Assembly: GCA_043718025.1 (NCBI GenBank)
Contig: JAYSWN010000063.1
Span: 1-37,002 of the forward strand
Length of the DNA: 37,002 nt
Origin: Pseudomonadota bacterium
Lineage (GTDB): Bacteria > Bdellovibrionota > FAC87 > UBA2466
Direction: 5' to 3'
Part shown: positions 11,183 to 37,002 of the stretch, piece by piece
Position numbering within the stretch: position 1 is the stretch's first letter
Layout of the letters: each line of letters starts with the position of its first letter
The notes under the pieces: model-generated
Databases searched by the model: none
What the model saw: only the letters and a program-made list of their open reading frames with translations
Told to the model about the DNA's origin: nothing
Position numbers and translations under genes: made by a program

Positions 11183-11195
11183 TTGAAGGCAGCTT

Positions 11196-14315: not shown

Positions 14316-14388
14316 TTTCTCTCCGGTTTTGATATTGGGGTGGGTCGCGAACAAAGTAGGGAAAGCGAAGGAGTCAGAAGTTACATTC

Positions 14389-14417
14389 ATTATACTTGAG
14401 ATTGACGAAGAACAGAA
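14389..14417 (-). promoter_or_regulatory. Possible sigma70 promoter for pseB
   Basis: Minus strand TTCTGT-N17-TATAAT in the intergenic gap. The -35 match is weak. Confidence 0.35.
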
Positions 14418-14456
14418 ACTTTGACCCGCCGCCATCAAAAACGAATCTGCTCCGAT

Positions 14457-15404: not shown

Positions 15405-15458
15405 ATCGACAAATCCATAACGATATGTGCGTACGGCCTATCCTCAGCCTCGTTATAT

Positions 15459-15488
15459 TTCAAAGTCTTCATGCGCTCAGGTTATAAT
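15459..15488 (+). promoter_or_regulatory. Putative sigma70 promoter for pseI
   Basis: TTCAAA-N18-TATAAT ending 32 nt before the proposed CTG start. Confidence 0.45.
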
Positions 15489-15520
15489 TGAGATCAGAAC
15501 AATAACATCGCGAGGAAAAT

Positions 15521-18680: not shown

Positions 18681-18693
18681 AGACAATTTCAAG

Positions 18694-20028: not shown

Positions 20029-20188
20029 AAACTCTCAAACTTCGGTTGAACAAACATTGCTGAAAGAGCGCTTCCCAACCCAACAATCAAATTGAAAAAA
20101 AATTAGAGCGCCCAATGGTTTTAAGGCCAGAGACAATCGGCGTTTTAGTCCGCGTTACAACGGACTGCTTTCTAATTTAAAAAGAGTC

Positions 20189-20266
20189 ATGAAGATACTA
20201 ACGGTAGTTGGAAATGACGAAAGAATCAACGGCAAGCAGGCGGCGCTCACCGAAGCGTTTCATTGA
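20189..20266 (+). pseudogene. Possible N-terminal remnant of a UDP-GlcNAc 2-epimerase (WecB-like) gene
   Basis: A 25-aa mini-ORF MKILTVVGNDERINGKQAALTEAFH with AAGAG upstream. The first 8 residues match the typical WecB start MKILTVVG(ARP). Confidence 0.3.
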
Positions 20267-20326
20267 CCTAAATTCAGTTGGAGGAACAAGTTTTGGAAAT
20301 GAAATGGAATGGGGTAGAATTGGCGC

Positions 20327-21247
20327 ATGCCCGACTTACTACGAGAGGTTGTAGCGGATGATAAAACAGCAATTCTCGCGTGGCGAAACCACCCGGATGT
20401 ACGACGCGGTATGTACACTAAGCATATCATCACGCCTCAGGAACACGAGGATTGGTTTCAGAGATCAATTTTAGACGATAGTAAAAGGCTATTAATCTAT
20501 GAACGCGATGGCATCGGTAAAGGATTTGTAGCGTTTTATAATATTGCCCCCACTCAATCAACTGCCGACTGGGCCTTTTACTCAGGTGATCTGCAGACTC
20601 GCGGCATCGGTTCCGGTATGGAACGAGTGGCACTTCAATTTGCTTTTCAAACATTGAATATCGAGAAACTTTCGTGCGAGGTTTTAGATTTCAATGAGAG
20701 TGTCATTCGTTTACACCAAAAATTTGGATTCCAAATCGAGGGTCGCTTCCGAAAGCATCACCTCCATGAAGGGATCCGCATCGATGTGCTACGGATGGCG
20801 ATTTTCAAGAAAGACTGGCAACGAGTTGCCGGCCCAGCTAAACCAATGCCCTTCAAAATCGGGGATCAATTCACGTTCACCACCCAATTCAACAATGAGC
20901 AGATTGATGAATTTGCTAAGGTGACAGGTGACCTGAATCCTATTCATATGAATGATTCAGCGGCAAGGCAGGCCGGGTTCAAAAGCCGCATTGTTCACGG
21001 AATGCTCGTAGCGAGCAGCCTTTCTCGAGTCTTGGCGACAAATTTACCGGGACCGGGAACCATATTCAAATCGCAAACCCTGGAGTTTATAAAGCCGGTC
21101 TACCCTGGAGATTCACTAATGATTCAGGTTGTAGTTCGATCAGTCGTAGAAAGCAGGGTCACTCTGGACACTTTTGTTTCAGATGAGATGAGTCACATGG
21201 TACTAATTTCTGGAACCTCACTGGTGATTTATCGACATGAAAAATAA
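20327..21247 (+). CDS. pseH: PseH GNAT N-acyltransferase fused to a MaoC/PhaJ-type (R)-enoyl-CoA hydratase
   Basis: N-terminal half has WRNHPDVRRGMY..H.I...EH..WF and CEVL.FN..VI.LH.KFGF..EG. C-terminal half has FAKVTGDLNPIH, RIVHGML, LPGPG and F.KPV.PGD. Confidence 0.88.
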   Translation: MPDLLREVVADDKTAILAWRNHPDVRRGMYTKHIITPQEHEDWFQRSILDDSKRLLIYERDGIGKGFVAFYNIAPTQSTADWAFYSGDLQTRGIGSGMERVALQFAFQTLNIEKLSCEVLDFNESVIRLHQKFGFQIEGRFRKHHLHEGIRIDVLRMAIFKKDWQRVAGPAKPMPFKIGDQFTFTTQFNNEQIDEFAKVTGDLNPIHMNDSAARQAGFKSRIVHGMLVASSLSRVLATNLPGPGTIFKSQTLEFIKPVYPGDSLMIQVVVRSVVESRVTLDTFVSDEMSHMVLISGTSLVIYRHEK

Positions 21248-21902
21248 AAAAAATATGCCCCAAGACCAAACTTTCTGGAATGGCGAGGGAGATCGGTGGT
21301 GGGAGCGAAATAGAAGCAAGCTTAAAACTGGCGAAGACCTTGTCTTGAACGTTATCGAACGAAATTCCGACCACCTTAAACTCGAAACGGTTTTAGATGT
21401 TGGTTGCGCTACCGGCTGGCGCATTGCAAAGATTCAAGATCAATATGGCTCAATCTGTTACGGAGTGGATGCTTCCGAAAATGCAATCAATGAAGGAAAG
21501 ATTCAATTCCCAAACTTGAAACTTACGAGAGCGCTGGCTTCGAAACTTCCGTTTGGAAGCTTAACTTTCGACTTGGTTATTATCAATTTTTTATTTTGTT
21601 GGATCTCGCGTCAAGCGCTGTTGAATTCTGTCGCTGAGCTGGACCGAGTTTTGAAGCATGATGGGCATTTGGTCATTGGGGATTTTTTACCCTATGAACC
21701 CACGGAAGCAAAATACCACCACTTGCCCGACCAAGGAGTTAAGACTTACAAGCAAGACTATGCTGAGCTGTTCTTAGCGACCAAATGGTACCAGCGGCAA
21801 GACATCTTGGAATTCAATCACGATGCTCCAACCGCCCTCCCCCCTTTTAAATCCGAATATCGAGCGGCAGTTCAACTGCTAAAGAAAATAGGCCCCACTT
21901 AA
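21237..21902 (+). CDS. Class I SAM-dependent methyltransferase
   Basis: VLDVGCATG, GVDAS, FDLV and RVLK..G motifs. Overlaps the pseH fusion stop. Confidence 0.88.
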   Translation: MKNKKNMPQDQTFWNGEGDRWWERNRSKLKTGEDLVLNVIERNSDHLKLETVLDVGCATGWRIAKIQDQYGSICYGVDASENAINEGKIQFPNLKLTRALASKLPFGSLTFDLVIINFLFCWISRQALLNSVAELDRVLKHDGHLVIGDFLPYEPTEAKYHHLPDQGVKTYKQDYAELFLATKWYQRQDILEFNHDAPTALPPFKSEYRAAVQLLKKIGPT

Positions 21903-21909
21903 CATAGTA

Positions 21910-21938
21910 AAGGAACTTAAAGAGTTTTTTAGCTCCTT
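21910..21938. terminator. Imperfect inverted repeat between convergent genes
   Basis: AAGGAACTTAAAGA-G-TTTTTTAGCTCCTT; the arms match at 11 of 14 positions. It abuts the stop of the 2440-aa gene. Confidence 0.4.
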
Positions 21939-24900
21939 AAAAGGCGCAACGACCACTGGTAATATTATTCCTATAGTAGGTGAAGTAGTAAAACTGATAG
22001 AACGTACCAGTATAAGAAGTGCCGTACCAATTACTGCCACCCAAAAGTGACGTGAAAATCCCAGCCTGAGTGGTGTACGGGTTATCTAAGCGTGCGGCTG
22101 GATTCTGCGGGTTCGGCACGCCATTGACTCCATTGGTCGGACTAAGGTTGTATAGATCCCAGCGAGTGTCATTATTGCCAACATTAAAACCTCGTTGCCC
22201 AACCAAAGCTTTTTCTAAACCAGCAAGCCCCATGCCATCAATGCCATTGTCCAGCCCATAATCTTGATAGTACTTATCCGCAGACCGTTCGTGGTAATTC
22301 GTAGTTGCGTCGTACACCCCGTACATTGAACGGCACTTAATTTTCGCGCCGGCCGGAGAGAGAGTAAAAGTACCTTCGGTACAATTGCCTCCGGACGTTT
22401 CGTAAGTTCGAGCGCTACTACCCACCAACGTCGGCCACGCGAAATCATTTTTGTCGACGATATCATTAAAGTCAAAATCGCCCCAATCGCCCGCAGTATT
22501 CTGCTCGGCAGTCGTTACCGGCCGCATCCGATAATCATTCTGAGTGGTGTCTGCGTCGGTTACGTTCGAGTTCATACAGCCGGCCACGTAGCTGCCGAAA
22601 TCTTGCTCAGAGATGGGAGTCACGGCGGGCACAGATTGAACTTTGAGAGAGGTTCCACCATTGTTACACGTGACGTCAATCAATCCCGTTCTTAAGTATC
22701 GTTCGTAACACGTTGAGGCGTCAGCACGCCAGAAGTAGGAAAGCCCCACGGTGCTCGCAGGCCCCTCATGACTCACATCATTGACAACCCCGGCGTATGC
22801 ACTCAGTTCGTAGCTAGAAATATAGTAGTCATGGTCAAGCCCTGAAAGATGCATTGGCACCCAAGACATACGCTGCGTCGGCTTTCCAAGAGTGGTGAGG
22901 GTCGTGTCGAGAAGGGCCAGACTTACGCGCCTTAATCTCGGCTCCATTCGAAAACTGCTTTGTCGCGAATCGTTGAATTTGAGATAAAGTGGTCGACCCG
23001 TGAGGTGTGGGGTTCGAAAACGCTGAACCTGGGGTGCCAGCCTATTTCCTACCTCATCTTCTGCCACTATGACGTAGATCCAAGCTGTCCTAGCATCGGT
23101 CGAAGATAGGTTGTCGATATAAGAGCATTTGTAAGGGCCGCTGCCATTGCAAATGCTGGAAGCGGTGAGAGGTCCGCCCGTTAAAGGGGTCCACGCGGAC
23201 GACAAGTTGCTATTCACCGCTAGTGGGTCAAGTGGCTTGCTGACTCCTATGGAATATCGAGATCCCGCCACTGCCCATGTAGGATTAAGACGTTCATCTT
23301 TCGCAACCGGCTCCTGCATCCGGTAAACGTAGTATTTAAAGTTTGCACTACAGGTGGCACCGCACGACTTTTCCCAAGGAGCCCAGGTTATCGTGATGGC
23401 CCCGCCGCTAGCAGAGGGGGAACTTGGAATAGAAATGCGTTCGAAGCGATAGTCTCCGAAGTTATCTGCCGCTATGCGCATGTAACGATTTTTGGGAACC
23501 GTCCAATCGGTTTTCGCAACCGCGACGCCACCAATCGTGGGGGTGTCGCCAAGCGCCGGAGTAACAGGATCGTGTGCATATCTAGTCTCTTCAGGCAGCT
23601 CCAAACCAAGTGCCGGAATGATGGTTTGTGGCGAGAAAGCAATGCAACGAAAGCCTGCGTTGGTAGGCAGGTCCGCACCGCTATCTTGGTCTATCCAGGA
23701 TTGCGTGTTGTAATCTTTTTGCTGAGTGAAAGGCGACGAATCACTGAAACCGCTCCCCATAAGCAGGGCAGCAGAATAAGGGGCATCAAACCTTCGAAAA
23801 ATTGGGGTTAATCGATCAATTCCGTTGTCGAGCATTCGACCCGCCGTATTATAAGCGTCGAGATATCGAACTTGCGCTGGGTTTCCAACTGTCCGCGTAA
23901 ATGCAGTCATACTCTGCGAGATCACACGGGCGTCCACCCATTCGCGCATATTGCCCGCGCCGTCCAAAACTTGAGCAACGCTTTGGCAGCCTAAGCTCAA
24001 GCCTGACCCAACAACTCCGCCGGAGAAGTTGCAGCCTTTTCCAGGATAAAGATCTGAATCAGAGGCCTGATCACTGTAAGTGTCGGCGGCCCATTGATTG
24101 GCTCTTCTCCACTCCTCTTGCGTTGGCAAACGCATTCTAAAATCAGCTCTCGAAGAATTTCGACAAGCCGCCCAGGCTTGCGCCCACTTTACGTTGCTTG
24201 GAATCTGACCCGGATTGCTTTCCACCGTACCCATAGAACCAAAAGTTCCACAGCCGTTTAACGCAGGCTGATAACCCGATCCAAGAGAGAAATTGTGAAA
24301 ATTATTATTACAACTTAGGAGATTAGGTTCGGTGGTGGTAACGCTAGGATTGCCCAAGGTGCCCGTAACCTTCGCCTCCACACTCATCATAAAAAAACCA
24401 TAAGAAAGTTTCGTAATCGACGGGGGCACGTAAACGTAGTTTGTTTGGTTTGAATTAACCGCGTATGTTGCCGTGTTATATTTAAGGTTAGTACTCGCAA
24501 TCGGAGATGGCGCGAAAGTGGTTCTCACGTGGAAGTAGCCAGAGGACACTGTTTTTCCTGCACAACCGACAAGAATAGATCCCGTAACCCTTGAATTTGG
24601 ATCGAAATTCACATCGTCGCGCGGAATGACCTGCCAAGCCGGCAAGCTGGTACGAAAGGTATTTGCTATTTCAGTGCTATTTGCCGCAGCCGGCGGCACA
24701 GGACTGTAATAGACATGGAAGAAGTCGACATTAACATTGGTCAATCCCCCCGAATTTATGATCAGGCGAAGCTTGGCCGTGCCATCGGGACAGGTACCAC
24801 TAGCGACAATTGTACTGCCGATATTACTAACGCCAAACGCTGGTGTAGGTGCAACGTAACTCGGGTTCACACAACGCACGTTACCGCTTTCGGCCGACGG

Positions 24901-27900
24901 ATTAATGCCAACAGGATTCAATGCTGTGCTTGCTCCGGACAAATAACGGCCGTCGCTATCGGCATATACCACTTTAACCAAATAGCAGGTGAAACCGCTC
25001 CGGCTATCGGCGGCAAGCACATTTTTGTCCAGGAATTCAAACGTTCCCCCGTTTTCGGAATAGTTTGCGGGGAAAGTGGCCTCTCGATCAATGACGATAT
25101 CTGGAGCAACCTCAGGGCCGGTTCGATTGGCTTTTAAGGCTGCTTTTGCGTTCAAATTATTACGCACATCACCTTCTTGGACGCCAAGTGCGGAGTCTCC
25201 ATATTCGCGCCAAATATAGACTTTATTCAAATATTTCGGGTAGGCGGCATCGGCTTCGGGCGGTGGTTTGATCGTGAGCCGGGCAGTATATTTTTCACCA
25301 GGGACGCGCGGTGGAAGAGTCGAATCATAACAATTGGTAAAATTGGAACCAGCATCGCAGCCCAGTATCGAACCCGGGCCATCGTTGGTCTTTATAGAAA
25401 CTAAATCTGTAGCAGAAGGAGGCTTGGGACTTAGATAGGCTAATTGGCCATCATTACTGATTCGGCGGCTACCACGAGAAAGATTGGGCGAGGCTTCGGT
25501 ATAGGCTCGAGCAACAACAAAATATTTTCCGTATCGTACCGGGAAGAGACCATCGGGATTGATGTCTTCATCAGCGCCAATACGAAAGAAGGATTCCCGC
25601 TCGGACAGCTGGCAATTAAAGGTTTTCATTTCAACCCGATCCAGGACCGGGGTAAGGGCAAAAAGTCGCTCCGCGAAATCATCATCCGTTTCGTTTTGGC
25701 CCAGGGTCGGCCGCTTGGAAAAGAGAGCGACCTGGGTTTTTTTGCATTGATTAATCGAAACAGGGGGTACCCCGGGAAGAAGAAAATGCCACTCATCGAA
25801 AGACGCTTGCATGGTGGCAAGATTCGTAACTTCAAGTTTCAAAGCATAACCGGCTGAATCTAAACGAATGCCGGCCGTCGCTGGGTTGAGCGGATCATCA
25901 GACTCTTCGGCCACCGGGAAAAGAGGGGCAACGGCGGTCGGAGTAACACACCAACCAACAACATTCGTTTCTTTTTCCAAAAAATGCGAATTAGAATTCG
26001 TACCATCGGGAAGCAAGTCATCCATGTACACAACCTTTGCCGCCACACAGACCTGTTCATTGGTCTTCAGCCCGTCGATATAAATGGGAACAGACTTTAC
26101 GCTGGTCGGATTCAGGCCGTTGATATTTGCGTTTCCACCGGAAAACTGAAAACGAAGAATAGACTTTGTATTTGTGTCAACAGACCTAAAAACGTACTGG
26201 TCGCCGTCTAGAATGTCGTAGTCACTGCGAGCAAACAATCCCGTTGGGCTTAGCGCCGCCGTAAGTGTCGAGATCACGTCACGACCGGCGATCGAGACCC
26301 GGCTACCCGGAGCAAACCCATTGGTGGTCAAGTTGCTAAATAAATTCACCGCGGTCTGCGGGCTATTCGAGAGGGATCGATCCACGGCCACCACTAAGTG
26401 TGAAAACAAACCGCCGTTGACATTGTCCACGACGGTTGCCGGCATCTCCACCGTTAGCTGGATGGCTTTAGCGCTGGCCGCTTCAACTTTTGTGACTCCG
26501 GCGCCCTGAGCAGGATCTGGCGCCTTATCGGTAGCGGCTACCACGGGCTGTGAACCGGCTCCATTGCCCGCATTAAAGAATTTTTCGGTGGCGACACCGT
26601 TGACGGCATTGCGATTATTTATTGAAGCAACGATGCAATAAATTGGCTTATTCTCGGGAATGTTATTCACCCCCAACGCGTTTTCGATAGCTACAGTTTT
26701 AGGGACTTCAACCGGCGTTTCGCCCGGACCAGTAACAATTACCGGTTCGTAGCTACGTTTCACTAAGGCCGCGTTGGGGCAGGTGGAAAATTTGGCTTGA
26801 GAGTATCCATAACAGTCGGGGAAAGAGAGGTCGCTGTCGGCGCAAGTATATTCGATGAAGGAATGATTAGCCGCGCCGAGGTGATTTGATCGAACCTGGT
26901 TATAAGTAACTAAAACTTTCGAGAAACCAGCCGCGCCCGGGGCTCTCCTTGCTTTTATAGCACCCGAGAACTGGGTAATAGGCTCCACCACCATATTCTT
27001 GCAGACCGCAAGCGGTGCAGTTTTCGAAAGGATGATTGGGAAACCTCCCACCATTAACGCCGGTTGAATAACCCAACAGTGCTGAGCCGGTGTACGCAAG
27101 ATGTTTGGGTCGGTCCACTTGAGAGTGGGGTCCGGCAAAGTTCCTCCAACCATAGCCGAATTATTTGAGATGACTGCGTAATAGTTGGATGAATGAAGTG
27201 TGGCCTCACCGGTTGGGCCATCCAAAGCCGCTTTAGGCCCCGGGGGAAGAGGCTCGTCCGAATGATAGACTATAAAGCGGTCGTAGGTGGCGCCTATTCG
27301 AGTTGGTGTGGCATAAGTGATTGTTGCGGATGTTTCACTGTTTGCAACAATCGATATAATATTTCCATCCGGCCATTCGGGAATCGTCGACCTTACTCTG
27401 CCCGAAAGCGGGCCTGTGTCGCCCGCTATCAAAGGGTTCGCCAAATTACAGTTACCGCTGCTATTGGGGTGGTAACACGCAATCATTTGAAAACGGTAAG
27501 AACATTCAGCCACTAAACCGGTGAGTACAACCTGATCTACAGCGGCAATGTTAAACGCGAACTCCCTAGCCACGCACAATGGGTTAGGAGTGCTGGCCTG
27601 CGGGGTAGCATAAACTCTAAAACCATTATGGCCCGTGGCAGGACCGAAGGTGATCGTCATTCTGGTAAAGCCGGACGTTAACGGTGGGCCAAGGTTGGGC
27701 GTAACGTTAGTCAAGCCGGCAAAGACGGGAGGATTCGCACCAACTCGCTCGCACATATACTGAACGTTGTCTGAAAGTAAAACATCGCCGTTGCCGTCAT
27801 TCACTAGGCGAGCTTGCACCTTGAATTTGTAAAGTTGTCCATCCTCCAAACCTACCACCCGATAATCGGTCGCGGCGGGGTTGGAGACTACGATGGGAGT

Positions 27901-29259
27901 GAACGGAGTAGTAAATGGCTGGTTGCAGGTAGTTACCTTCTCGTAGGTAATTAAAAAGCTATCGTGCACGCCCGGGGCAGCCGTGCTAACGGAGCCGATA
28001 CCGACGTTTAACATAGACAAAGCTTCATTTGCATCCCCGGTTGCTCGACGGACGTAAATAATTCCCGCGAAGCCTTTGGTAATCTCAAACTTCTTGGTTT
28101 GAATACTTCTATCGACTCGGTTTTCTTCGACCAAACTTGTGGTTTTCCTAACAGCCCGGACTACAAAATGAGTAACGGTATTCGATGGCAAATTAATAAT
28201 TCTTACGCTCGTTTGGCTTGCGTCTACTAATATCCCCCTTGCTGGATCTGAAATGAGTGGAACGCTGACGTTGTTCACAACGATGGGTTTGAGGCTCGTG
28301 ATTCCAAGTTGGTTATAGTAAGCCGGAAACGACACCGGAACGGTAAATACATTGGCCAAAGCCGCGCCAAGTCCCCGGTCAGACGCGGAAAAGACCTGGT
28401 AACCTGAAATCGTGTCCAGATTCAGAGCATTATTCCAAGAAAGCGTTCCTTCACTTAATCCCTCTTTTCCGGAAGCCACCGCGGCTACTTTTAGGCCTTC
28501 GAACACCGGAAAGTTTAAGCCCACCAATAGAGAATCGGACCGTAATATCGTGTTGCTATCGTTCTGGCCCGAATCCCGCGCCCGCACCATAAACTGTTCC
28601 GTGCCTTCACCTTTAGTCTGAACACGCATTGAAAGGTTGACCGTCGTGCCCAACAAAAATAATTGACGAGAATCGCTGACCACGCGGTATACGGAATAAA
28701 CGCAATTTAAAGGAACATTACTATTTAAGTCACGGCAGGTTTCCCAGCGAGCGGTATAGAAATTGTCTGAAGCCGCGGCCAAGTCTTTGATACCGTCGAA
28801 CTTCACCACGTTGCCAACGCCCTCTTCCTGCAAAACCACGTAGGCGTAGTCGTGATACACTTTCGTTCCTTTTTGCGCGCTCACCCCAAAATACCAAGGG
28901 CCACCGGCGGCGGGCACCGTGACTTCATAAGAAGTATTAGGAGTGGTGAAAGAGGTGGTAGACCAAAGGCCATCTAAATTATTTGACGTGTGTCCAATGT
29001 AGGTAAGTGCCGAGGAAGACGAGCCGGCCGGTTTCAACCACTTACAGATCCACACTTTTTCGGTTTGATCGTAGGCATTGGGATTTGATTTTGGGGTGCA
29101 CGCTGTTCCAGTGGGGCCAACGTTAGAGCTGCTGCTAAAGTTTAGTGCGCTACCACTACAGCCGGTGATCGAAAGCAGAATCGCAAAGGCGATGGCGGCG
29201 CGAACGCGATGGCCGCGGGCCAGCCTAAGTCGAAGCGAATTAAAATAAAAGTTACTCAT
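21937..29259 (-). CDS. Giant surface lipoprotein (2440 aa): FN3/Ig-like beta-sandwich array plus two FGE-sulfatase/C-type-lectin-fold domains
   Basis: Lipobox ITGC at Cys34. Recurring P.F.G[LI] starts and F.VRA/Y.F.VQA strands. First CLec domain RLPTQEEW...GNMREWV...GFRC; second, degenerate CLec domain RPVTTAEQ...GVYDATTNYHE...GG..W...GRC. Confidence 0.8.
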   Translation of the reverse strand: MSNFYFNSLRLRLARGHRVRAAIAFAILLSITGCSGSALNFSSSSNVGPTGTACTPKSNPNAYDQTEKVWICKWLKPAGSSSSALTYIGHTSNNLDGLWSTTSFTTPNTSYEVTVPAAGGPWYFGVSAQKGTKVYHDYAYVVLQEEGVGNVVKFDGIKDLAAASDNFYTARWETCRDLNSNVPLNCVYSVYRVVSDSRQLFLLGTTVNLSMRVQTKGEGTEQFMVRARDSGQNDSNTILRSDSLLVGLNFPVFEGLKVAAVASGKEGLSEGTLSWNNALNLDTISGYQVFSASDRGLGAALANVFTVPVSFPAYYNQLGITSLKPIVVNNVSVPLISDPARGILVDASQTSVRIINLPSNTVTHFVVRAVRKTTSLVEENRVDRSIQTKKFEITKGFAGIIYVRRATGDANEALSMLNVGIGSVSTAAPGVHDSFLITYEKVTTCNQPFTTPFTPIVVSNPAATDYRVVGLEDGQLYKFKVQARLVNDGNGDVLLSDNVQYMCERVGANPPVFAGLTNVTPNLGPPLTSGFTRMTITFGPATGHNGFRVYATPQASTPNPLCVAREFAFNIAAVDQVVLTGLVAECSYRFQMIACYHPNSSGNCNLANPLIAGDTGPLSGRVRSTIPEWPDGNIISIVANSETSATITYATPTRIGATYDRFIVYHSDEPLPPGPKAALDGPTGEATLHSSNYYAVISNNSAMVGGTLPDPTLKWTDPNILRTPAQHCWVIQPALMVGGFPIILSKTAPLAVCKNMVVEPITQFSGAIKARRAPGAAGFSKVLVTYNQVRSNHLGAANHSFIEYTCADSDLSFPDCYGYSQAKFSTCPNAALVKRSYEPVIVTGPGETPVEVPKTVAIENALGVNNIPENKPIYCIVASINNRNAVNGVATEKFFNAGNGAGSQPVVAATDKAPDPAQGAGVTKVEAASAKAIQLTVEMPATVVDNVNGGLFSHLVVAVDRSLSNSPQTAVNLFSNLTTNGFAPGSRVSIAGRDVISTLTAALSPTGLFARSDYDILDGDQYVFRSVDTNTKSILRFQFSGGNANINGLNPTSVKSVPIYIDGLKTNEQVCVAAKVVYMDDLLPDGTNSNSHFLEKETNVVGWCVTPTAVAPLFPVAEESDDPLNPATAGIRLDSAGYALKLEVTNLATMQASFDEWHFLLPGVPPVSINQCKKTQVALFSKRPTLGQNETDDDFAERLFALTPVLDRVEMKTFNCQLSERESFFRIGADEDINPDGLFPVRYGKYFVVARAYTEASPNLSRGSRRISNDGQLAYLSPKPPSATDLVSIKTNDGPGSILGCDAGSNFTNCYDSTLPPRVPGEKYTARLTIKPPPEADAAYPKYLNKVYIWREYGDSALGVQEGDVRNNLNAKAALKANRTGPEVAPDIVIDREATFPANYSENGGTFEFLDKNVLAADSRSGFTCYLVKVVYADSDGRYLSGASTALNPVGINPSAESGNVRCVNPSYVAPTPAFGVSNIGSTIVASGTCPDGTAKLRLIINSGGLTNVNVDFFHVYYSPVPPAAANSTEIANTFRTSLPAWQVIPRDDVNFDPNSRVTGSILVGCAGKTVSSGYFHVRTTFAPSPIASTNLKYNTATYAVNSNQTNYVYVPPSITKLSYGFFMMSVEAKVTGTLGNPSVTTTEPNLLSCNNNFHNFSLGSGYQPALNGCGTFGSMGTVESNPGQIPSNVKWAQAWAACRNSSRADFRMRLPTQEEWRRANQWAADTYSDQASDSDLYPGKGCNFSGGVVGSGLSLGCQSVAQVLDGAGNMREWVDARVISQSMTAFTRTVGNPAQVRYLDAYNTAGRMLDNGIDRLTPIFRRFDAPYSAALLMGSGFSDSSPFTQQKDYNTQSWIDQDSGADLPTNAGFRCIAFSPQTIIPALGLELPEETRYAHDPVTPALGDTPTIGGVAVAKTDWTVPKNRYMRIAADNFGDYRFERISIPSSPSASGGAITITWAPWEKSCGATCSANFKYYVYRMQEPVAKDERLNPTWAVAGSRYSIGVSKPLDPLAVNSNLSSAWTPLTGGPLTASSICNGSGPYKCSYIDNLSSTDARTAWIYVIVAEDEVGNRLAPQVQRFRTPHLTGRPLYLKFNDSRQSSFRMEPRLRRVSLALLDTTLTTLGKPTQRMSWVPMHLSGLDHDYYISSYELSAYAGVVNDVSHEGPASTVGLSYFWRADASTCYERYLRTGLIDVTCNNGGTSLKVQSVPAVTPISEQDFGSYVAGCMNSNVTDADTTQNDYRMRPVTTAEQNTAGDWGDFDFNDIVDKNDFAWPTLVGSSARTYETSGGNCTEGTFTLSPAGAKIKCRSMYGVYDATTNYHERSADKYYQDYGLDNGIDGMGLAGLEKALVGQRGFNVGNNDTRWDLYNLSPTNGVNGVPNPQNPAARLDNPYTTQAGIFTSLLGGSNWYGTSYTGTFYQFYYFTYYRNNITSGRCAF

Positions 29260-29453: not shown

Positions 29454-30116
29454 TTATAGATAAAAACGGTAAGAAAGCAAAATTGCTGTCCGTTTACAAG
29501 TCACTTGGGGGGCGGTGGCCGGGAGAGTCAGCATGTCGGTAAAAAACTCGAATGCTATCGCCGATTTCTCGCCGATATCCTGTCTAAATTGTATACCAAC
29601 CATGGCTTCAAACGTATGGCCGCTGATTTTTACAAAGAGTTCTTTATCGGCAACGTCAAACATGGTGTAGCCCACGCGCGCGATAAGCGAGAAGTTGTAG
29701 GGGTTTTTGCGTTCGAAACGCACGAACCCCAAATCTTGTTTGGTGCGGCGCGCGCCCCCCATTAGGTGATGCGCCACCGTTGCATAAATGCCCTTTTCGG
29801 CAAGCAGACTATTTACAAAATCGCCTACCAAGGCGAGCTCGAGACCAAGGGTGGTCTTTTGATCGACATCGAAATTGGCGCCAATAATGAGTGGGTTTCC
29901 GGCGTAGCCGCTAATGGTAGCGCCGGGGCTCTCCTGCCCTTCGAGGTTACTGGGGTTTTGTTGCACCACGCCCGTGGTCATACCGAACTTAAGACTGATA
30001 TCCATTTCGGATTTTTCAGGCGCACTGTTGCTACCGTTATTACTATTTTCCGCCCTCACCGTTAGCGACGATAAACAGAGCAGCAGCGCAAAAAAAATGT
30101 AGCTAATTTTGAACAT
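29454..30116 (-). CDS. Predicted small outer-membrane beta-barrel protein
   Basis: Signal peptide (cleavage after VRA), alternating amphipathic strands and an aromatic C-terminal strand LSYRFYL. Confidence 0.6.
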   Translation of the reverse strand: MFKISYIFFALLLCLSSLTVRAENSNNGSNSAPEKSEMDISLKFGMTTGVVQQNPSNLEGQESPGATISGYAGNPLIIGANFDVDQKTTLGLELALVGDFVNSLLAEKGIYATVAHHLMGGARRTKQDLGFVRFERKNPYNFSLIARVGYTMFDVADKELFVKISGHTFEAMVGIQFRQDIGEKSAIAFEFFTDMLTLPATAPQVTCKRTAILLSYRFYL

Positions 30117-30143: not shown

Positions 30144-30713
30144 CTACTGCACCATGCGGAGCAGCTCACCGATTTCGGCGTCTTCAGGATCTAATGAGCG
30201 GGCTTTATTAAAGGCCAAGCGAGCCTGATCTCGCTTACCCTCCTGATAAAAAGCTAAGCCGGTAATAATGAGCGGCGCCGCCAAAGTGGCGTCCACATCG
30301 GCCGCCTTTTGCGCTAGCTCTTTAGCCAGGCGAAGGTCTTTGGCCGAAAGCGCCTGGTAGGCCTTCATTATAAGCCGCACCGGGCGATTGTTGTTCTTGT
30401 CGTTTACCTGGCAGGCAGAAAGCTGCCGCACCTTCACGTCAATTCGGCGGGCACTATCATCGGGGGGAAACCAATATTGTGAAGATTTTCCTGCCGCACC
30501 GATCCGAACCGCCTTTCCTACCAATTTGTCGCTGGTGGCCACAAAAGGATTGGTGCTGGGCGCACTGCTTCCTTCTGGATTATCGAGTGGCACCACAGTT
30601 ATGACGCTGCCCGGCTCAGAAGAAGAAAACGTAATCGTGCGTTCGCCTCCGCAGCCAGGCAGGACAAGCCAAGTCAGCCCTAGGGCTATCGCAAAATTTG
30701 TTTTGTTTTTCAT
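30144..30713 (-). CDS. Lipoprotein with PEGA-like N-domain and C-terminal TPR repeats
   Basis: Lipobox LPGC, a short beta-rich segment (ITFSSSEPGSVI), then TPR pattern GLAFYQEGKRDQARLAFNKARSLDPED. Confidence 0.75.
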   Translation of the reverse strand: MKNKTNFAIALGLTWLVLPGCGGERTITFSSSEPGSVITVVPLDNPEGSSAPSTNPFVATSDKLVGKAVRIGAAGKSSQYWFPPDDSARRIDVKVRQLSACQVNDKNNNRPVRLIMKAYQALSAKDLRLAKELAQKAADVDATLAAPLIITGLAFYQEGKRDQARLAFNKARSLDPEDAEIGELLRMVQ

Positions 30714-30807: not shown

Positions 30808-32949
30808 ATGACTGTATCACCTCACATCCTTGCGTGGGTCCGCCTACGTTGTGCACTGGCACTTAGCCTCGCTGCACTTCTTGGCGCCTCCTCATCCCAC
30901 GCTGAAGCCAATCGAAGACCACCTCCACGTGCTCCAGGAAACCTAGGCCAACCTCAAGCCGGACGACCAGTCGCGCCCAATGCGCGAGCTCCCGGCGGGT
31001 CTGAAGGTGGAGTAAATGCTGGTGCATTACTGTCGCGCACCTACGAAGAAAAAGCCCGTGAAATTCTTGAGCGGTATCTACCGCAAAAAGAATTTCAAGT
31101 GATTGCCAATGTCACTCACAACGGGCGTCCGATCCCGAGAGCGCCGTACGAGCCAAAAACGCTCACTCCCGGGTCGTCACTAAACCTCACCCCTGACGAG
31201 CTGGCGCCGTACGTATCACGCATCGTGATCGAGATAGCGCTGGCCAATCGACTCAATTCGGCCAAGCGCCGAATTGAGGAGCTGCTAAACCGCGGCTTGA
31301 AACTGCAAAAACCACGGGGCGATACCGTAACCTACTCGCCGCTGGGCATCGAGCTCGAGACCGATGACTGGAAAAAAGAAAAGCTCGATCTCAAACGTGA
31401 GATGGAAGTCATCAAATCAGAAAACACTCGCCTCAATCAAGAGATGGGGCAAAAAGGGCGCGGCGACAAAGGCGGCGGAGCGCCGGCCGGTGATTCCGAC
31501 CCCGGCAAACTCTCCAACCAACCCTGGTTCCTGCCGGCCCTGGTTGGCGGCGCCTGCTTTATTTTACTTATCGGGCTACTCGGCATTGGCCGCGGCTTCT
31601 TCTCCGCTGGAAAAAACCTCGGCGAAGCGGTGACGAATGTGGCCGGAGCGTTAGAACGTTTAGGCGGCAGCCTCGCGGCCGGCCTTACGGGCGGTTCCGC
31701 GGCCGCTCAAGAGATGAAGTTGATGGGCGGTGAAGGCTTCGGAGGTAGCAACGGAAAAGGCTTGGCTAACCTGCCGATGGAAGCCATTCACGCGCATCTA
31801 CTAAAATTGCGCAACGAACTTTTGGATAACATGACCGAAGGCGCGCAAAGCGTTATTTTAAAGCACATCAGCAAACTGCTTTCATTCCCCGAAACGACGC
31901 CCAAGGCTATCGTCACCCTTGAACTGCTGGGCCGTGAAACCGCCACCGAAATGTTTAAACGTCTAAGCATACGTTCACAAGAGGCCATCATGGTCTTTCT
32001 TCGCGGCGGCATGGGGGCCGGCAATAAGATCGAAATGATGCTCGATGCGGCCGAAGATTTAAAGACCAAGCTCTTGATGGAAGGGTTTGAAAGCGTTCGC
32101 GGCAAGCCGTCCGAACGAATCTCGCAAAAATTAATTCAGATCAGCGACGACGAACTGGTTCAGGTGGCGCTCGAGATGGACGGAGAATCGTTGCCGCGCT
32201 TATTCCTCTATTTAGACCCGCAAAAGATCTCGGCCATCTTCAACGCAATGAAGCGCTTGAACCCCGACCGGTTCCAAGGCGCGCTAACCTCTTTGCCAAA
32301 ATTACCCGAGGCCTCGGCGACCGAAGCTTTTGACGACAACATCGTCGTGGCGCTCGACTCAATCATCGCCAAAATGAAGGGCGACATGCAGCGGCCATTC
32401 CTCAAGGTCTACCAAGACATTGTGGAATTAACCGACTCCGAAGTCAGCGAACAATTGGTGCGCGAACTCTCCACCGATCCGCGCATCGAAGAATTTTTGC
32501 GCATGAACGTAATCACTTTCAACACCTTCTATGTACTGACCACGGAACTGCGTAACGCCCTCATCGATGGCCTGAGCAATAAAGACATTGCCGCCTTGTC
32601 GTTCGGCGCCCGCGAAGAAGACCGCGACCTCGTATTGGCCGGAGTCGCCGACCGACGCAAAGAGATGGTCAAAGAAGAATTTGAAAGCATGGAGGCTCGG
32701 GGCGCACAAGCCGCCGCTCCGGCCGTAAAGAAAGCACGCGAGTTGGTACTGACCAAGATTAAGGCCATGAAGGTCGACGGCACTCTAGTCACCGCCAAGA
32801 GCGATGACGCTCGCAGTCAAAAGAAAAGCGGCGAAAACGCCGAAACGGGATCTGAAGAGTCACCAGTTTCTCAAGAAGGAGAGACCGGAGCCGAAGACGA
32901 AAATTTAGCCGTGAGCGATGAATCGGAAGACAAACAAGATGCAGCTTAA
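30808..32949 (+). CDS. Putative FliF(ring domain)-TM-FliG fusion rotor protein
   Basis: Signal-like N-terminus. aa ~79-177 resemble FliF RBM3 (YEEKAREIL..., RIVIEIAL, GLKLQKPRGDTV). TM at ~240-261. FliG_N-like KAIVTLELLGRETATEMFKRLS, FliG_M-like LFLYLDPQKISAIF and FliG_C-like TF...LSNKDIAALSFGAREEDRDLVL...RRKEMVKEEF. Confidence 0.75.
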   Translation: MTVSPHILAWVRLRCALALSLAALLGASSSHAEANRRPPPRAPGNLGQPQAGRPVAPNARAPGGSEGGVNAGALLSRTYEEKAREILERYLPQKEFQVIANVTHNGRPIPRAPYEPKTLTPGSSLNLTPDELAPYVSRIVIEIALANRLNSAKRRIEELLNRGLKLQKPRGDTVTYSPLGIELETDDWKKEKLDLKREMEVIKSENTRLNQEMGQKGRGDKGGGAPAGDSDPGKLSNQPWFLPALVGGACFILLIGLLGIGRGFFSAGKNLGEAVTNVAGALERLGGSLAAGLTGGSAAAQEMKLMGGEGFGGSNGKGLANLPMEAIHAHLLKLRNELLDNMTEGAQSVILKHISKLLSFPETTPKAIVTLELLGRETATEMFKRLSIRSQEAIMVFLRGGMGAGNKIEMMLDAAEDLKTKLLMEGFESVRGKPSERISQKLIQISDDELVQVALEMDGESLPRLFLYLDPQKISAIFNAMKRLNPDRFQGALTSLPKLPEASATEAFDDNIVVALDSIIAKMKGDMQRPFLKVYQDIVELTDSEVSEQLVRELSTDPRIEEFLRMNVITFNTFYVLTTELRNALIDGLSNKDIAALSFGAREEDRDLVLAGVADRRKEMVKEEFESMEARGAQAAAPAVKKARELVLTKIKAMKVDGTLVTAKSDDARSQKKSGENAETGSEESPVSQEGETGAEDENLAVSDESEDKQDAA

Positions 32950-32964
32950 GACGGGAAACAAGTT

Positions 32965-33786
32965 ATGAATTTTTCATCATTTATAGGATTTGCCCTGGCG
33001 GGTACCGTATTCGGTGCGGCGCTAATGACCTCGTCAAAAAATTACATGGTCTTCTTTGACGCCCACGCCATTCTGATCGTGATTGGCGGCACCATCTCAG
33101 CAAGCTGCATCTGCTTTCCGGTTCCCAAAGTGCTCAGCATGGTCAAAGTATTCCTACGCCGGATCCTGGGCGGAGGAAAACGAGATTACCTGGTGATTAT
33201 CGATGAAATTGTCGCCCTTGCCGCAGCTAACCGCCGCGGTAAACAGGCGTTCGAAGGCGCCGTTCAAAAGGTGAAAGATCCTTTTCTAAAAGACGCCGCC
33301 CAAGTTCTGTTTTGGCTAGATGCTGAAATCTCTAAAGAGGAGCTGCGCGATTTACTCGAAACCCGCGCCTCCACGGTCTTCGAACGTTACTCGAGCGAGG
33401 CCAATATCTTTAGGGTGATGTCAAAATTTCCGCCCGCGTTCGGCCTATTGGGAACCACGCTGGGTATGATTGCCCTGCTCCAGAGCTTGGGCAATGCCGA
33501 TGCAAAAAACTCAATCGGCCCATCGATGTCGATCGCGTTGGTAGCCACGCTGTACGGCATCGTATTCGCCAACTTTGTATTTGTTCCCATCGCCGAAAAC
33601 CTGACGGCGCAGACCAAAGAAGACTTGGTGTCCCGGCGCATTGTCGTGGAAGGCGTCATGCTTATTGCTGACGATAAGCCCACGGCGTTCGTCGAAGAAA
33701 AAATTAAATCATTTATCCTTCCTGGCGAGCGAGGCAAGCGCGGGGCAGTCAATCGCCCGCCGGCGAAAACAGCGAAGGCGGCTTAA
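32965..33786 (+). CDS. motA: MotA/PomA-family stator A subunit
   Basis: ILIVIGGT, cytoplasmic NRRGKQAFE and DPFLK, PPAFGLLGTTLGMI, IGPSMSIALVATLYG and ANFVFVPIA motifs. Confidence 0.93.
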   Translation: MNFSSFIGFALAGTVFGAALMTSSKNYMVFFDAHAILIVIGGTISASCICFPVPKVLSMVKVFLRRILGGGKRDYLVIIDEIVALAAANRRGKQAFEGAVQKVKDPFLKDAAQVLFWLDAEISKEELRDLLETRASTVFERYSSEANIFRVMSKFPPAFGLLGTTLGMIALLQSLGNADAKNSIGPSMSIALVATLYGIVFANFVFVPIAENLTAQTKEDLVSRRIVVEGVMLIADDKPTAFVEEKIKSFILPGERGKRGAVNRPPAKTAKAA

Positions 33787-33795
33787 GTAGAAATT

Positions 33796-34635
33796 ATGGG
33801 TCATCACTCAAAAATGATTGGCGCAGCACACGGCGAGCACGCTGAAGAAGGCGAAGCGTGGCTGGTCTCCTATGCCGACATGATGACTCTGCTATTTGGC
33901 TTCTTCGTCATCATGTATTCCATGTCGGCAACGGATGACAAAAAGATGGCGGCCATCGGCAAAGAAATAGCCGAGCAGTTTAAAGGCAAGACCGACAAAA
34001 CCAACACCGACACCGGAATTTTAATGGAAGCGCGCCAGATACGCGCCCTACAAATGCTCGTGGCTCTGCTCAATCTTGGCGACAATGTCGAGAAGGCGGT
34101 TGAAACCATCGAAAAGATTGTAGCCGCCACCAAAGATATAGAAGCGGCTAAAAAAATCTTGCTCAAGGATATTAAGGGCAAAGACAAAGTGGTTGAAGAG
34201 CTCCGTATGAATATTCTGGAGCGTGACGATGCGGTCGAACTTTCCTTACCCGACACGATGCTTTTTGAATCCGGCGGCGCCGAACTAAAAGCCAGCGCCA
34301 AATCCGGCTTGCGAAAGATCGTTGGCTACCTCAACCGGATTAAAGGCATGACGGGACTGGAGATCGTGGGTCACACCGATTCTCTACCGCCTTCTCGCGC
34401 TTCGAAATACCCGAGCAACTATTCGCTGTCGGCGGCGCGTGCCGGAGCGGTGACGGAAGAATTTATTAAGATGGGGCTCAATCCCAAGGGCGTTATCACC
34501 AGGGGCATGGCGAATTTGCAACCGCTCTTCCCCGAGCGACGCGCCGACAAAACATTGATCACTGAGAACCTTGCCAAGAATCGGCGAGTGAGCATTCTCA
34601 TAAAAAAGAAACACGTAAATGACTCAGTCAAATAA
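33796..34635 (+). CDS. motB: MotB/PomB-family stator B subunit with OmpA-like peptidoglycan-binding domain
   Basis: WLVSYADMMTLLFGFF (ion-binding Asp), LFESGGAEL, GHTD, NYSLSAARA and NRRV motifs. Confidence 0.93.
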   Translation: MGHHSKMIGAAHGEHAEEGEAWLVSYADMMTLLFGFFVIMYSMSATDDKKMAAIGKEIAEQFKGKTDKTNTDTGILMEARQIRALQMLVALLNLGDNVEKAVETIEKIVAATKDIEAAKKILLKDIKGKDKVVEELRMNILERDDAVELSLPDTMLFESGGAELKASAKSGLRKIVGYLNRIKGMTGLEIVGHTDSLPPSRASKYPSNYSLSAARAGAVTEEFIKMGLNPKGVITRGMANLQPLFPERRADKTLITENLAKNRRVSILIKKKHVNDSVK

Positions 34636-36697
34636 AAAACCGAATGCGGCGGCAGCCAATCAGGACGAAGCGCTGGAGATACCCGACGCGAGTACCTTAG
34701 ATGCGTTAGAGGCGACGGTTATTGCCGATACAGCTCAATTGGCGAGAGCCGCCGAGGCCACCAAACCAACCCCCAGCGGCAAACCTGCGCGTGCTCCAAA
34801 ACAGACCGCCGCCGAGAAGGCTGCGGCAGTTAAAGACGATAAAATCGCCAAAGCGGCCAAAGCCGCAAAAATTGCCAAGGCCCCCAAACTCCCCTGGCGC
34901 AACCGCATCAGTCTATCGGCATTCGTGTCCTACATTGTGCTCGGTTCCATCTTTCTGGTTTGCGGGGGGTTGGGGTGGTACGCATTGCGCACCCTTTACG
35001 ACAATAAGCTTGTCGATATTTGGGCGATTACGTTTCTCGAACTTGAGGAACAAGGCAACCAAATGCTAAAGAAACTGGGGCAGCATTGGGATGATCACTC
35101 CGATGGATCACGCTCGGCCCTCGCCAAGGGCGCTCAAGAGGGCGTGCTAAAAATCGTGGGCGATACCGGATTTCAAACCGTACGCGGGGCTTTTCCCTAC
35201 GACTTACCGGTTAAATCGCTTCAACTCAAAAACACGACCACCACGGCGCGCTGGAACGTGTGGCAGTACGCAGGAAAGAATTATTTGGCGGTGCGAGTTG
35301 ATGATGCCTGGATTACCAGCCGTTATCGCGACCAGGTCACCCGTGGTGAGTACATGAATCTCATCCCGATTGATTTTTCGCGGTGGTTTGACCACAGCCT
35401 GGCGCCCGACGAAAAGAAGAACACATTTTATCTCGTCACGCGCGAAGGCCGACTCGTATACACCAACCATTCCGACATCAACGCTGGCAATTACATGAAG
35501 CGGCCGCTCATTCAAAAATTTGTTAATAGTCCGATTCGTCAGGGCCAGGTTGATTTCGATGGCGAAGATGGCCCCTCTTACGGCTTCTTTTTTGAAGTTC
35601 CTGACACCAATTTATTGATGTTTGCCGAGACTTCAAAACGAGTGGCGTTGGCCCCCGTGCGCGCCATCGCCTTGAACTACGCTTTGACCATTCTCTTTGT
35701 GCTTGGCGTCGTCGCTTTGGCAATTCAGGTGCCGATTACTAACTACGTGGTCGCCCCCCTTCGCGAACTGGTGCAAATGGCCGACGAAGTCGGCGACGGC
35801 AATTTCGATATCAACGTGCGGCGCCAAGGTTTGGGTGAGCTGTACGTGCTATCGCGCTCTTTTGTCGATATGGCGAAGAATTTGGTAACCCGCGATAAAA
35901 AGATACAAGGCCTACTGGTGGTCCAAGAGGAAAAACTGCGCCTTAACGAAGAGCTCGCGCTAGCTAAGAGCATTCAAGACAATTTTCTTCTTGATCAGAT
36001 TTTACCCGCCGCGGCCGGCATTGAAGTGGCTGCGCAATATACTCCCTGCACGGAGTGCGCCGGTGACTGGTACGGCTATTTTTATGACCCGATTACCGAT
36101 CAATCGGTTTGTGCGGTGGCTGACGTTTCAGGTCATGGCGCAGGATCGGCGATGTTTACGGCCATTATCGCCTCGACTTTTGAAGAGATGAAGATCGCCT
36201 GTTCACTGCGCCGCGAACCTTTCTCCCTCACTGATTTGGCGGACCGGTTGAATCGGCTGTTTCTGCGGTTAGGAAAGGGAAAAATGCACGCAACCTTAGT
36301 TGCCGCACGCTTTCACCGCCCTACTTCTACCCTAAGCGTGGTGAACTGTGGCCACCCTCCGCCGATTTTATTGCCACCGGCTGAAGACGGTCGCAAAGGT
36401 GTTCCGCTGGCGGGTAGCTCCGATGCGCTAGGTTTTAAAGAAGGTTCCATTCCCTATATTAGCGAAGTGGAGTTTACGCCTGGCATGAGTTTGTTCATGT
36501 ACACCGATGGATTGATCGAAGGTCGACCCGATAAAAAACTCTACACCGAACGCCGAATTAACAAAGCGGTTAAGATCCAACCCGGACAAAACATAAATCA
36601 GATGGTGATTAGGGTGTACGAAGACTGGCGAAAATTCCTGGATGGCTTGCCGCCGACGGATGACGTTTGTCTACTGGCAATGCGAGCCACTTCGTGA
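34619..36697 (+). CDS. Membrane sensor Ser/Thr phosphatase: periplasmic Cache-like domain, HAMP, SpoIIE/PP2C
   Basis: Two TM helices, HAMP (PLREL...V.DGNF...EL..L..SF..M) and PP2C motifs GDWY, ADVSGHG, NCGHPPP, YTDG and DD. Overlaps motB by 17 bp. Confidence 0.9.
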   Translation: MTQSNKKPNAAAANQDEALEIPDASTLDALEATVIADTAQLARAAEATKPTPSGKPARAPKQTAAEKAAAVKDDKIAKAAKAAKIAKAPKLPWRNRISLSAFVSYIVLGSIFLVCGGLGWYALRTLYDNKLVDIWAITFLELEEQGNQMLKKLGQHWDDHSDGSRSALAKGAQEGVLKIVGDTGFQTVRGAFPYDLPVKSLQLKNTTTTARWNVWQYAGKNYLAVRVDDAWITSRYRDQVTRGEYMNLIPIDFSRWFDHSLAPDEKKNTFYLVTREGRLVYTNHSDINAGNYMKRPLIQKFVNSPIRQGQVDFDGEDGPSYGFFFEVPDTNLLMFAETSKRVALAPVRAIALNYALTILFVLGVVALAIQVPITNYVVAPLRELVQMADEVGDGNFDINVRRQGLGELYVLSRSFVDMAKNLVTRDKKIQGLLVVQEEKLRLNEELALAKSIQDNFLLDQILPAAAGIEVAAQYTPCTECAGDWYGYFYDPITDQSVCAVADVSGHGAGSAMFTAIIASTFEEMKIACSLRREPFSLTDLADRLNRLFLRLGKGKMHATLVAARFHRPTSTLSVVNCGHPPPILLPPAEDGRKGVPLAGSSDALGFKEGSIPYISEVEFTPGMSLFMYTDGLIEGRPDKKLYTERRINKAVKIQPGQNINQMVIRVYEDWRKFLDGLPPTDDVCLLAMRATS

Positions 36698-37002
36698 AGG
36701 GGCGTTACCAAAAACACTTCTTGATCGTCGCCTTGGTCAGCGCGTCGCTTGCGCTCAGCGCCCCGCCTAGAATGGGAAAAACCGAAGCGGGCGGGCGCCT
36801 CAAAAAATACCGCATCCTCTCCACCGTGGGCCGCGTCACCGCCTGGGAGCCTTGGGCAACGGTCTGGACGGACGTAAACGTCGGCGACGAGCTCTGGGAA
36901 TCTACGCTCGTGCAAATTCATCGCGGCGGAACCTTCTCGTTTGAATTGGCTTCTAAAGAAGCGTTGAAGGGATTGCAGGGTGAGGCCATCCAGGTGAAAC
37001 TG
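36694..37002 (+). CDS. Secreted protein with FecR-like N-terminal domain, 3'-truncated; absent from the supplied ORF track
   Basis: GTG overlaps the PP2C stop (GTGA) and the frame is open to the window end: MKGRYQKHFLIVALVSASLALSA...ILSTVGRVTAWEPWATVWTDVNVGDELWESTLVQI. Confidence 0.6.
   Translation, partial: MKGRYQKHFLIVALVSASLALSAPPRMGKTEAGGRLKKYRILSTVGRVTAWEPWATVWTDVNVGDELWESTLVQIHRGGTFSFELASKEALKGLQGEAIQVKL

Follow-up and report, generated by a model that had tools for sequence, protein, structure and literature searches.

Contig JAYSWN010000063.1 (assembly GCA_043718025.1, from a Bdellovibrionota bacterium), whose whole 37,002 nucleotides are the window analysed here, encodes on its forward strand a natural fusion of a FliF-type ring domain with all three domains of FliG, directly followed by a dedicated motA and motB, in a genome from which the flagellum has gone. 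Our preferred reading, to which we give a probability of roughly 55%, is that these genes belong to a flagellum-free module in which a ring of the fusion protein would be turned one way by its own MotA/MotB stator, and the work passed to outer-membrane partners that move or export a large surface protein. The parts of this reading differ in strength: i) the architecture of the fusion and the absence of a flagellum from the genome are very nearly certain; ii) a fusion ring would, by analogy with the flagellar motor, probably be driven by the stator; iii) transmission of the output through envelope partners is slightly favored; and iv) the identity of the cargo as the giant lipoprotein encoded nearby is a tentative suggestion. 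An earlier note on this DNA had proposed a FliF-RBM3/FliG fusion with a dedicated MotA/MotB used outside a flagellum, and the folds, the flagellum-less genome, and the linkage to motA described below all speak for that proposal.

The three open reading frames lie where that note had placed them, at 30808-32949 (713 amino acids, aa), 32965-33786 (273 aa), and 33796-34635 (279 aa), separated by intergenic gaps of 15 and 9 bp, and the periplasmic motifs it quoted lie at aa 79, 138, and 163 of the fusion. Pfam finds FliG_C in the module (E 2.1e-5, over cut-off) together with MotA_ExbB, MotB_plug, and OmpA. The fusion (30808-32949, + strand), a candidate rotor subunit on Pfam, profile, and model evidence, opens with a predicted cleavable signal peptide of about 32 residues (30808-30903; hydropathy, cleavage site by eye), which is predicted to stand in place of the first membrane helix, RBM1, and RBM2 of FliF. 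There follow a periplasmic domain of RBM3 fold (aa 67-178, 31006-31341), a long helix (aa 186-218), a single transmembrane helix (about aa 240-265, 31525-31602; hydropathy and model), and the FliG N, M, and C domains (aa 362-662, 31891-32793). Together the models and the chain itself establish a predicted topology of one membrane anchor, with RBM3 outside and FliG N-M-C inside. Conservation was assessed in an alignment (A2) of 99 near-full-length fusion homologues out of 156, 57 fragments and low-coverage sequences having been excluded; in a hydropathy scan, almost every near-full-length homologue opened with a leader-like stretch and had a single strong hydrophobic segment within the chain.

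In an AlphaFold2 model of the whole fusion (mean predicted local distance difference test score, pLDDT, of 82) FliG is the first structural match and FliF RBM3 the next. When the periplasmic domain is modelled alone, pLDDT rises to 93 (core above 90), with FliF RBM3 the top match; Foldseek places FliF at ranks 1 to 17 (best E 8.4e-4), and VIA-align against 48,161 chains finds FliF at Z 10.4, 9.8, and 8.8 (root-mean-square deviation, rmsd, 2.5 A over 91 aa for the best), ahead of OsmC/Ohr (Z 7.7), SpoIIIAG (6.1), and EscJ (5.4). The order read by eye in the earlier note, from signal-like leader through RBM3-like segment and one membrane helix to FliG N, M, and C, is confirmed. The link to FliF rests on fold, together with the motif, because a profile comparison of the fusion with one canonical FliF was weak (hhalign 1.7%, E 0.03, 49 columns); the Pfam FliF models have no match in the fusion, and single-sequence searches reached only E 0.12 in the PDB and no NCBIfam family. 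RBM1, RBM2, the two membrane helices, and the full beta-collar of FliF are absent from the fusion, which has one internal helix and a leader; the collar has shrunk to a strandless loop of about 30 aa containing a PYxP motif (aa 113-116), whose P113, Y114, and P116 are kept in 83, 91, and 82 of the 99 rows of A2.

The cytoplasmic half is FliG by several measures. The A2 profile matches Thermotoga maritima FliG M and C at E 5e-19; hhalign against the canonical FliG of a relative gives 95.8% (fusion aa 363-662 against FliG 11-330); FliG_C of the model superposes on FliG_C at Z 12.3 (rmsd 1.8 A, 89 aa); and the N-M-C region aligns with full Salmonella FliG over 289 aa (rmsd 8.4 A). Profile and model therefore agree with the assignment of aa 360-665 to FliG. 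As the earlier note had also claimed, R616, E623, and E624 (32653-32679), with their +7/+8 spacing, fall on the FliG torque helix, where they align with R..DE (the residues named R281/D288/D289 in 10.1101/2024.04.30.591856). All three charges are retained in 65/99 rows; taken singly, E624 is retained in 83, R617 in 78, R616 in 72, and E623 in 65, and these residues rank in the top ten for conservation in a FliG_C region whose mean column identity is 20%. The EHPQ motif and the Gly-Gly linker, which have roles in FliM binding and switching, are present in T. maritima FliG and missing here: EHP occurs anywhere in only 4/99 rows, and GG in the linker of 1/99. Loss of these FliM-binding and switch motifs suggests one-way running. 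A quick tree of the FliG part contained four badly trimmed rows, and nothing is drawn from it.

The stator is of flagellar type. MotA (32965-33786, +; TGI4-like) finds its best matches in solved flagellar stators (Clostridium MotA, E 5e-31; PomA, E 7e-28), and in a tree of 27 rows, in which long branches are flagged, a 100/100 branch groups it with Mot against TolQ/ExbB/AglR; it stands apart from the flagellar MotA of relatives, with which it shares just 25-27% identity. The rotor-facing residues of PomA are R88, K89, E96, D114, and R232 (PMC10374538); by alignment the module MotA retains E97 (PomA E96), D119 (PomA D114), and, at altered spacing, two arginines, R90/R91. MotB (33796-34635, +), the sole MotB in the genome, has a plug, an OmpA-like peptidoglycan-binding domain, and a membrane aspartate, D28, which is the ion-binding residue already picked out in the earlier note. 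The plug, the OmpA domain, the aspartate, and a MotA on the MotA/PomA side are shared with flagellar-type stators of the FIT clade, and the 2025 stator survey that describes them classes this MotA clade as flagellar (PMC12505986).

The genome (4.14 Mb, 92.4% complete) nonetheless has no flagellum for such a stator to serve. Its only FliG_C and only MotB plug are those of the module, and no FliF (PF01514), FlhA, flagellin, rod, or FliM/FliN family was found in it. Among 20 Pfam-labelled flagellar structural and export proteins of two relatives, 19 have no tblastn match in the genome at E<=1e-3 (the lone match, FliI at 28%, is probably an F1-ATPase paralogue), whereas 38/43 other genes common to both relatives were detected as a control. 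On contig C200 just 18 bp separate what in relatives are the flanking genes of the flgB-fliF-fliG-flgE block, and on contig C66 the fliL-to-flhA block has dropped out, with a lipoprotein gene on one side of the deletion and a shortened flhF on the other; canonical motAB is also gone. This mid-contig synteny, with the 38/43 control, rules out an assembly gap as the reason for the missing genes, and FlhA is absent from 4/4 genomes of the genus yet present in 30/30 other genomes of the family. The earlier note had seen no flagellar structural genes in the window; in the genome as a whole, two flagellar operons have been deleted mid-contig and there is no separate canonical fliF, fliG, or motAB. 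Nor were injectisome hallmarks (the SctV/FlhA export gate and the SctJ ring) found in the genome. Since rod, hook, filament, export gate, FliM, and FliN are lacking, the module cannot build a flagellum. Beside the deleted operon, C66 retains at 8149-9770 FliA (84% identical to that of a relative) and a 271-aa FlhF remnant; FliA also controls non-flagellar predation genes in Bdellovibrio bacteriovorus, according to a review. Six CheW-domain matches likewise remain (contigs C128, C166, and C227).

Linkage between fusion and stator is general. A profile search with the fusion family returned 381 clusters at E<=0.001 and 121 clusters (50% identity) at E<=1e-30, and the neighborhoods of 25 distinct loci were surveyed, with identical proteins collapsed into one. 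Eight of these loci belong to the close family, 14 were taken from a set of 16 long FliG_C frames, and the other 3 come from further families of the phylum. In 23/25, motA lies within 6 kb of the fusion, so that the adjacency noticed in the window holds for the homologues. The earlier view that three genes make up a self-contained unit does not survive the same survey: the module also includes, as conserved components, a tetratricopeptide repeat (TPR) lipoprotein, an outer-membrane barrel, and a SpoIIE phosphatase. The first two are found in 7/7 close loci with flanking sequence. In the window the TPR lipoprotein (189 aa; 30144-30713, -) is transcribed divergently from the fusion gene with 94 bp between them; it matches Pfam TPR at E 1.1e-4, has a lipobox by eye, and has homologues in distant families as well. 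Next to it is a small predicted outer-membrane beta-barrel of 220 aa ending in YRFYL (29454-30116, -), whose ESM Atlas neighbors are small outer-membrane barrels (score 0.97) and whose orthologue at locus L013 matches OMP_b-brl at E 1.1e-5, under cut-off. On the other side, a membrane sensor with HAMP (E 2e-8) and SpoIIE (PP2C) phosphatase (E 7e-33) domains (34619-36697, +) overlaps motB by 17 bp; the gene occupies the equivalent position in 6/6 close stator-bearing loci with flank, and also lies beside the fusion in the finished genome G132.

The candidate adhesin or cargo, which varies between carriers, would be a giant predicted surface lipoprotein of 2440 aa (21937-29259, -) with a lipobox-like leader by eye and sub-threshold matches to fn3 (E 7.9e-5) and to FGE-sulfatase (E 0.027); no solved relative was found. 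A large predicted lipoprotein gene is present in 4/5 close stator-bearing loci with flank; relatives of the giant gene itself occur at L012 and L013, where the C-terminal 1,000 aa are about 30% identical, and, weakly, at L034, and a different giant Ig/FG-GAP protein is found at L040.

We suggest that the module could work as follows. Copies of RBM3 and FliG would close into a ring with the torque helices facing outward, as they do in FliF and FliG, and a peptidoglycan-anchored MotA5B2 would pass ions, probably protons, at MotB D28 and push the torque helices in gear-like fashion. There would be no chemotactic switch, because FliM/FliN, the EHPQ motif, and the Gly-Gly hinge are all lacking, and control would more likely be exerted through the co-transcribed SpoIIE phosphatase. 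In the last and weakest step, the PYxP loop may engage the TPR lipoprotein and the small barrel, which would handle the giant surface lipoprotein. The loop is a candidate for this coupling because it sits in the insert where the FliF collar and rod-binding loops arise; loops arising from the collar are reported to transmit torque to the rod (10.64898/2025.12.04.692373), and laboratory FliF-FliG fusions retain rotation (PMC4768692).

The fusion is neither confined to non-flagellated hosts nor universal among relatives. The close family occurs in 6/38 genomes of the class, and four of the six are flagellated and possess their own separate canonical FliG; the fusion cannot, then, be the flagellar rotor, and its occurrence does not depend on loss of the flagellum. 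Between the two non-flagellated carriers MotA is 86% identical, and all module reading frames are intact. A search with A2 at E<=1e-20 matched 6/401 genomes of the phylum, all in the family of the window; a metagenome scan yielded one locus; and the commonest recorded taxa of ESM Atlas look-alike clusters, which we take only as leads, include Bdellovibrionota, Bacteroidota, Balneolota, and Pseudomonadota. A second, paralogous family (L037-L039, L041-L050, L105, and L106) combines a barrel-like gene, a TPR gene, a shorter fusion (about 555-600 aa) with an MPGF motif, and divergent motA/motB, and two or three module families are found together in some genomes. Stand-alone FliG_C frames of about 150-280 aa are scattered through many genomes of the class (for example G023:C4:2148986-2149291), and one is present in genome G026 although that genome has no flagellar genes. 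Genome G008 has, at L036 (7842-10915), a second copy of TPR gene, fusion, and barrel; no stator follows it, and the contig breaks off a short way upstream.

One further relative leads to a well-studied predator. In G132, one of five finished genomes checked, we find a run of genes that starts with motA and motB, continues with those for the barrel and the TPR lipoprotein and with two hypothetical ones, and closes with a 575-aa fusion and SpoIIE; its MotA is 37% identical to that of the window, as against 26% for a flagellar MotA. In B. bacteriovorus HD100, Bd3021 (motA) and Bd3020 (motB) are followed by five hypothetical genes and Bd3013, a phosphatase-like regulator annotated as a sigma factor regulation protein (PMC2797640), so that the motAB2 locus (Bd3013-Bd3021), compared by gene order alone, matches the G132 module in order and count; motAB1 and motAB3 have unrelated named neighbors. 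This suggests that B. bacteriovorus motAB2 is the stator of such a module. In a two-hybrid assay flagellar FliL bound MotB3 and not MotA2 or MotB2, although the assay also missed MotA-MotB pairs (PMC11323537).

Several observations weigh against a stator-driven ring coupled to surface cargo: i) two of the 25 loci have no adjacent stator, namely L036, where the contig ends about 0.5 kb upstream, and L050; ii) with a collar of about 30 aa, as against about 89 aa in Vibrio FliF (PMC11481574), and with no RBM1 or RBM2, closure of a ring is not assured; iii) the arginine cluster and glutamate that the earlier note had placed in the rotor-facing loop of MotA are present, but their spacing is 7 rather than the canonical 8, the canonical arginine column holds Asn in alignments to Clostridium and B. 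subtilis MotA, R90/R91 reach PomA R88/K89 only via a one-residue gap, and the equivalent of PomA R232 is Thr; iv) the coupling ion is only somewhat more likely to be the proton than sodium, since two of the three sodium-site threonines (PomA T158, T185, and T186) are kept, T185 having become Ala, whereas proton stators replace two; v) in the second family the acidic torque residues are gone from the fusion and the Arg from MotA; vi) the giant gene is absent beside L035, and none was seen beside the second family; vii) the close family is patchy, and two genomes of the genus, at 77% and 90% completeness, yielded no member of it; viii) Agl-Glt-like gliding genes are encoded separately in the genome, hence gliding does not need the module; and ix) the published reading of the three B. 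bacteriovorus motAB pairs as serving one flagellum (PMC13689555) counts against a purely non-flagellar role, at least for the stator.

Of the competing explanations, the one that survives best, though we think it unlikely, is that the module is a non-rotary energizer in which the fusion acts as a monomer or short arc in the manner of TonB, TolA, or GltG, the stator stroking FliG_C while RBM3 pulls on the barrel for transport or envelope remodelling. A protein without collar, RBM1, and RBM2, at a locus with no evident gene for an axial shaft, would suit such a role, and the pairing of a TPR lipoprotein with a small barrel is reminiscent of Tol and Agl-Glt layouts (NCBIfam matches to PilW and GltE are weak and under cut-off). 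Yet the fusion retains all three FliG domains, which are ring-builders in flagella, as well as RBM3, the ring-forming part of FliF (PMC11481574), and its stator, which is anchored to peptidoglycan, belongs to the flagellar clade.

It is less probable still that stator and rotor form a load or surface sensor, reporting contact or drag on the surface lipoprotein to HAMP-SpoIIE, which would alter gene expression, with movement incidental. The phosphatase gene does overlap motB, keeps its position in all close stator-bearing loci with flank, and recurs in distant G132, and stator mutations alter the growth mode of B. bacteriovorus, though these were in fliL and motA3 (PMC11323537). The phosphatase has its own periplasmic input region, however; a dedicated rotor is not required for sensing; and neither next to the second family nor at L040 did a SpoIIE gene turn up.

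We regard as improbable a gliding motor that drives the giant lipoprotein along the surface as the motor of the type IX secretion system (T9SS) drives SprB. The host lacks a flagellum, and a surface lipoprotein with fn3 and lectin-like matches faces the module in four of the five close stator-bearing loci with flank; but no track protein is evident, a stator anchored to peptidoglycan stays where it is, and an AglRQS-like triad with GltG- and GltC-like genes occurs elsewhere in the genome. There, at L068 (contig C169, 5264-13722), one of four loci with triads of TolQ and two ExbD genes (L067-L070), the triad is followed by a 1120-aa TPR protein and by GltG-like (E 2e-34) and GltC-like (E 1e-16) genes, both under curated cut-offs; this is a likely gliding apparatus. 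Finally, an accessory or decaying flagellar part, that is, a spare stator and alternative rotor left after flagellar loss, has very little in its favor beyond the flagellated carriers and the one-flagellum reading of three stator pairs in B. bacteriovorus (PMC13689555), and is already largely refuted for this genome, in which the module frames remain intact and MotA is well conserved although the flagellar operons and canonical motAB are gone, the fusion lacks RBM1/RBM2, collar, and EHPQ, and FliL bound MotB3 rather than MotA2/MotB2 in the two-hybrid assay cited above, with its limits.

Several known systems can be compared with the proposed rotary module. With the flagellar motor core (the FliF MS ring, FliG, and MotA5B2/PomA5B2) it shares the RBM3 fold, FliG N-M-C with a torque helix of R/D/D type, and a stator of the flagellar clade; it differs in that its rotor is a single chain carrying a signal peptide and just one membrane helix, in that FliM/N, export gate, rod, hook, and filament are lacking, and in that a TPR lipoprotein, a small barrel, and a SpoIIE phosphatase accompany it. 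The nearest described system is the FliF-FliG fusion of Chlamydiaceae (PMC4768692), likewise a natural fusion in a non-flagellated bacterium. As described there, that protein, of about 330 aa, has two membrane helices and combines an RBM2-like part with FliG_M alone, so that the torque domain is missing; the description lists no stator and ties the fusion to the injectisome. A protein of 713 aa with RBM3 and FliG N-M-C does not fit it. Laboratory fusions of FliF and FliG in Salmonella and Vibrio form rings and rotate (PMC4768692, PMC7355467, PMC11481574), but as reported they retain the whole FliF periplasmic part and work within a flagellum.

The T9SS/gliding motor (GldLM with GldKN) is alike in outline, a 5:2 ion motor driving an envelope ring or belt that moves and secretes adhesins (PMC13104615); we found no homology to it, and its driven part is at the outer membrane, whereas the FliG ring proposed here would be at the inner membrane. 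Agl-Glt, Tol-Pal, and ExbBD-TonB also join an ion motor, TPR proteins, and outer-membrane barrels in an envelope-spanning set, but they use TolQ/ExbB-type motors with TonB-like transducers; the module MotA groups apart from these, and the genome encodes Agl-Glt-like, Tol, and TonB genes separately. The Agl-Glt hallmark set (TolQ-type AglR, two ExbD-like partners, and GltG/GltJ) is not at the module locus, such genes being on other contigs.

To our knowledge no working FliG rotor outside a flagellum has been reported. A natural FliF-FliG fusion in Chlorobium was not borne out by the papers searched, and the literature search found no description of such a module, although subscription papers were mostly outside its coverage and a prior mention is possible; FliG goes unmentioned in a gliding review of 2026 (PMC13104615). 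The parts are known and the system as a whole, as far as we could find, is not; on balance we lean toward a widespread, undescribed envelope machine in which a one-protein FliF/FliG ring with a private MotAB is coupled through a TPR lipoprotein and a barrel to surface cargo. If so, i) the module would relate to the flagellar motor as the injectisome does to the flagellar export gate; ii) the rotor-stator core would have a job without an axle; and iii) one of the three "flagellar" stators of B. bacteriovorus would be reassigned. A three-protein core with another job would bear on the origin or reuse of the flagellar motor and would offer a minimal motor for reconstitution; and with a related locus probably present in the genetically tractable B. 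bacteriovorus, the question is testable now.

The remainder of the window adds a few details. A GTGA overlap couples the phosphatase gene to that of a secreted protein (36694-37002, +), which the contig end cuts short; a profile of the genes of four relatives matches it at E 1.5e-30, and the protein, 360-430 aa long in relatives, belongs to no Pfam family. Scans for promoters and terminators were at chance level, and a plasmid search gave no match. Between dedA and the giant gene lies a sugar cluster of nonulosonic-acid type (8310-21902; NeuB, cytidylyltransferase, DegT, dehydratase, and a sialyltransferase-like protein), which looks inserted because dedA and the giant gene adjoin in L012 and L013, and which might serve to glycosylate the giant lipoprotein. 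Further upstream (1301-4597) is a class II, B12-dependent ribonucleotide reductase with a TSCPD domain.

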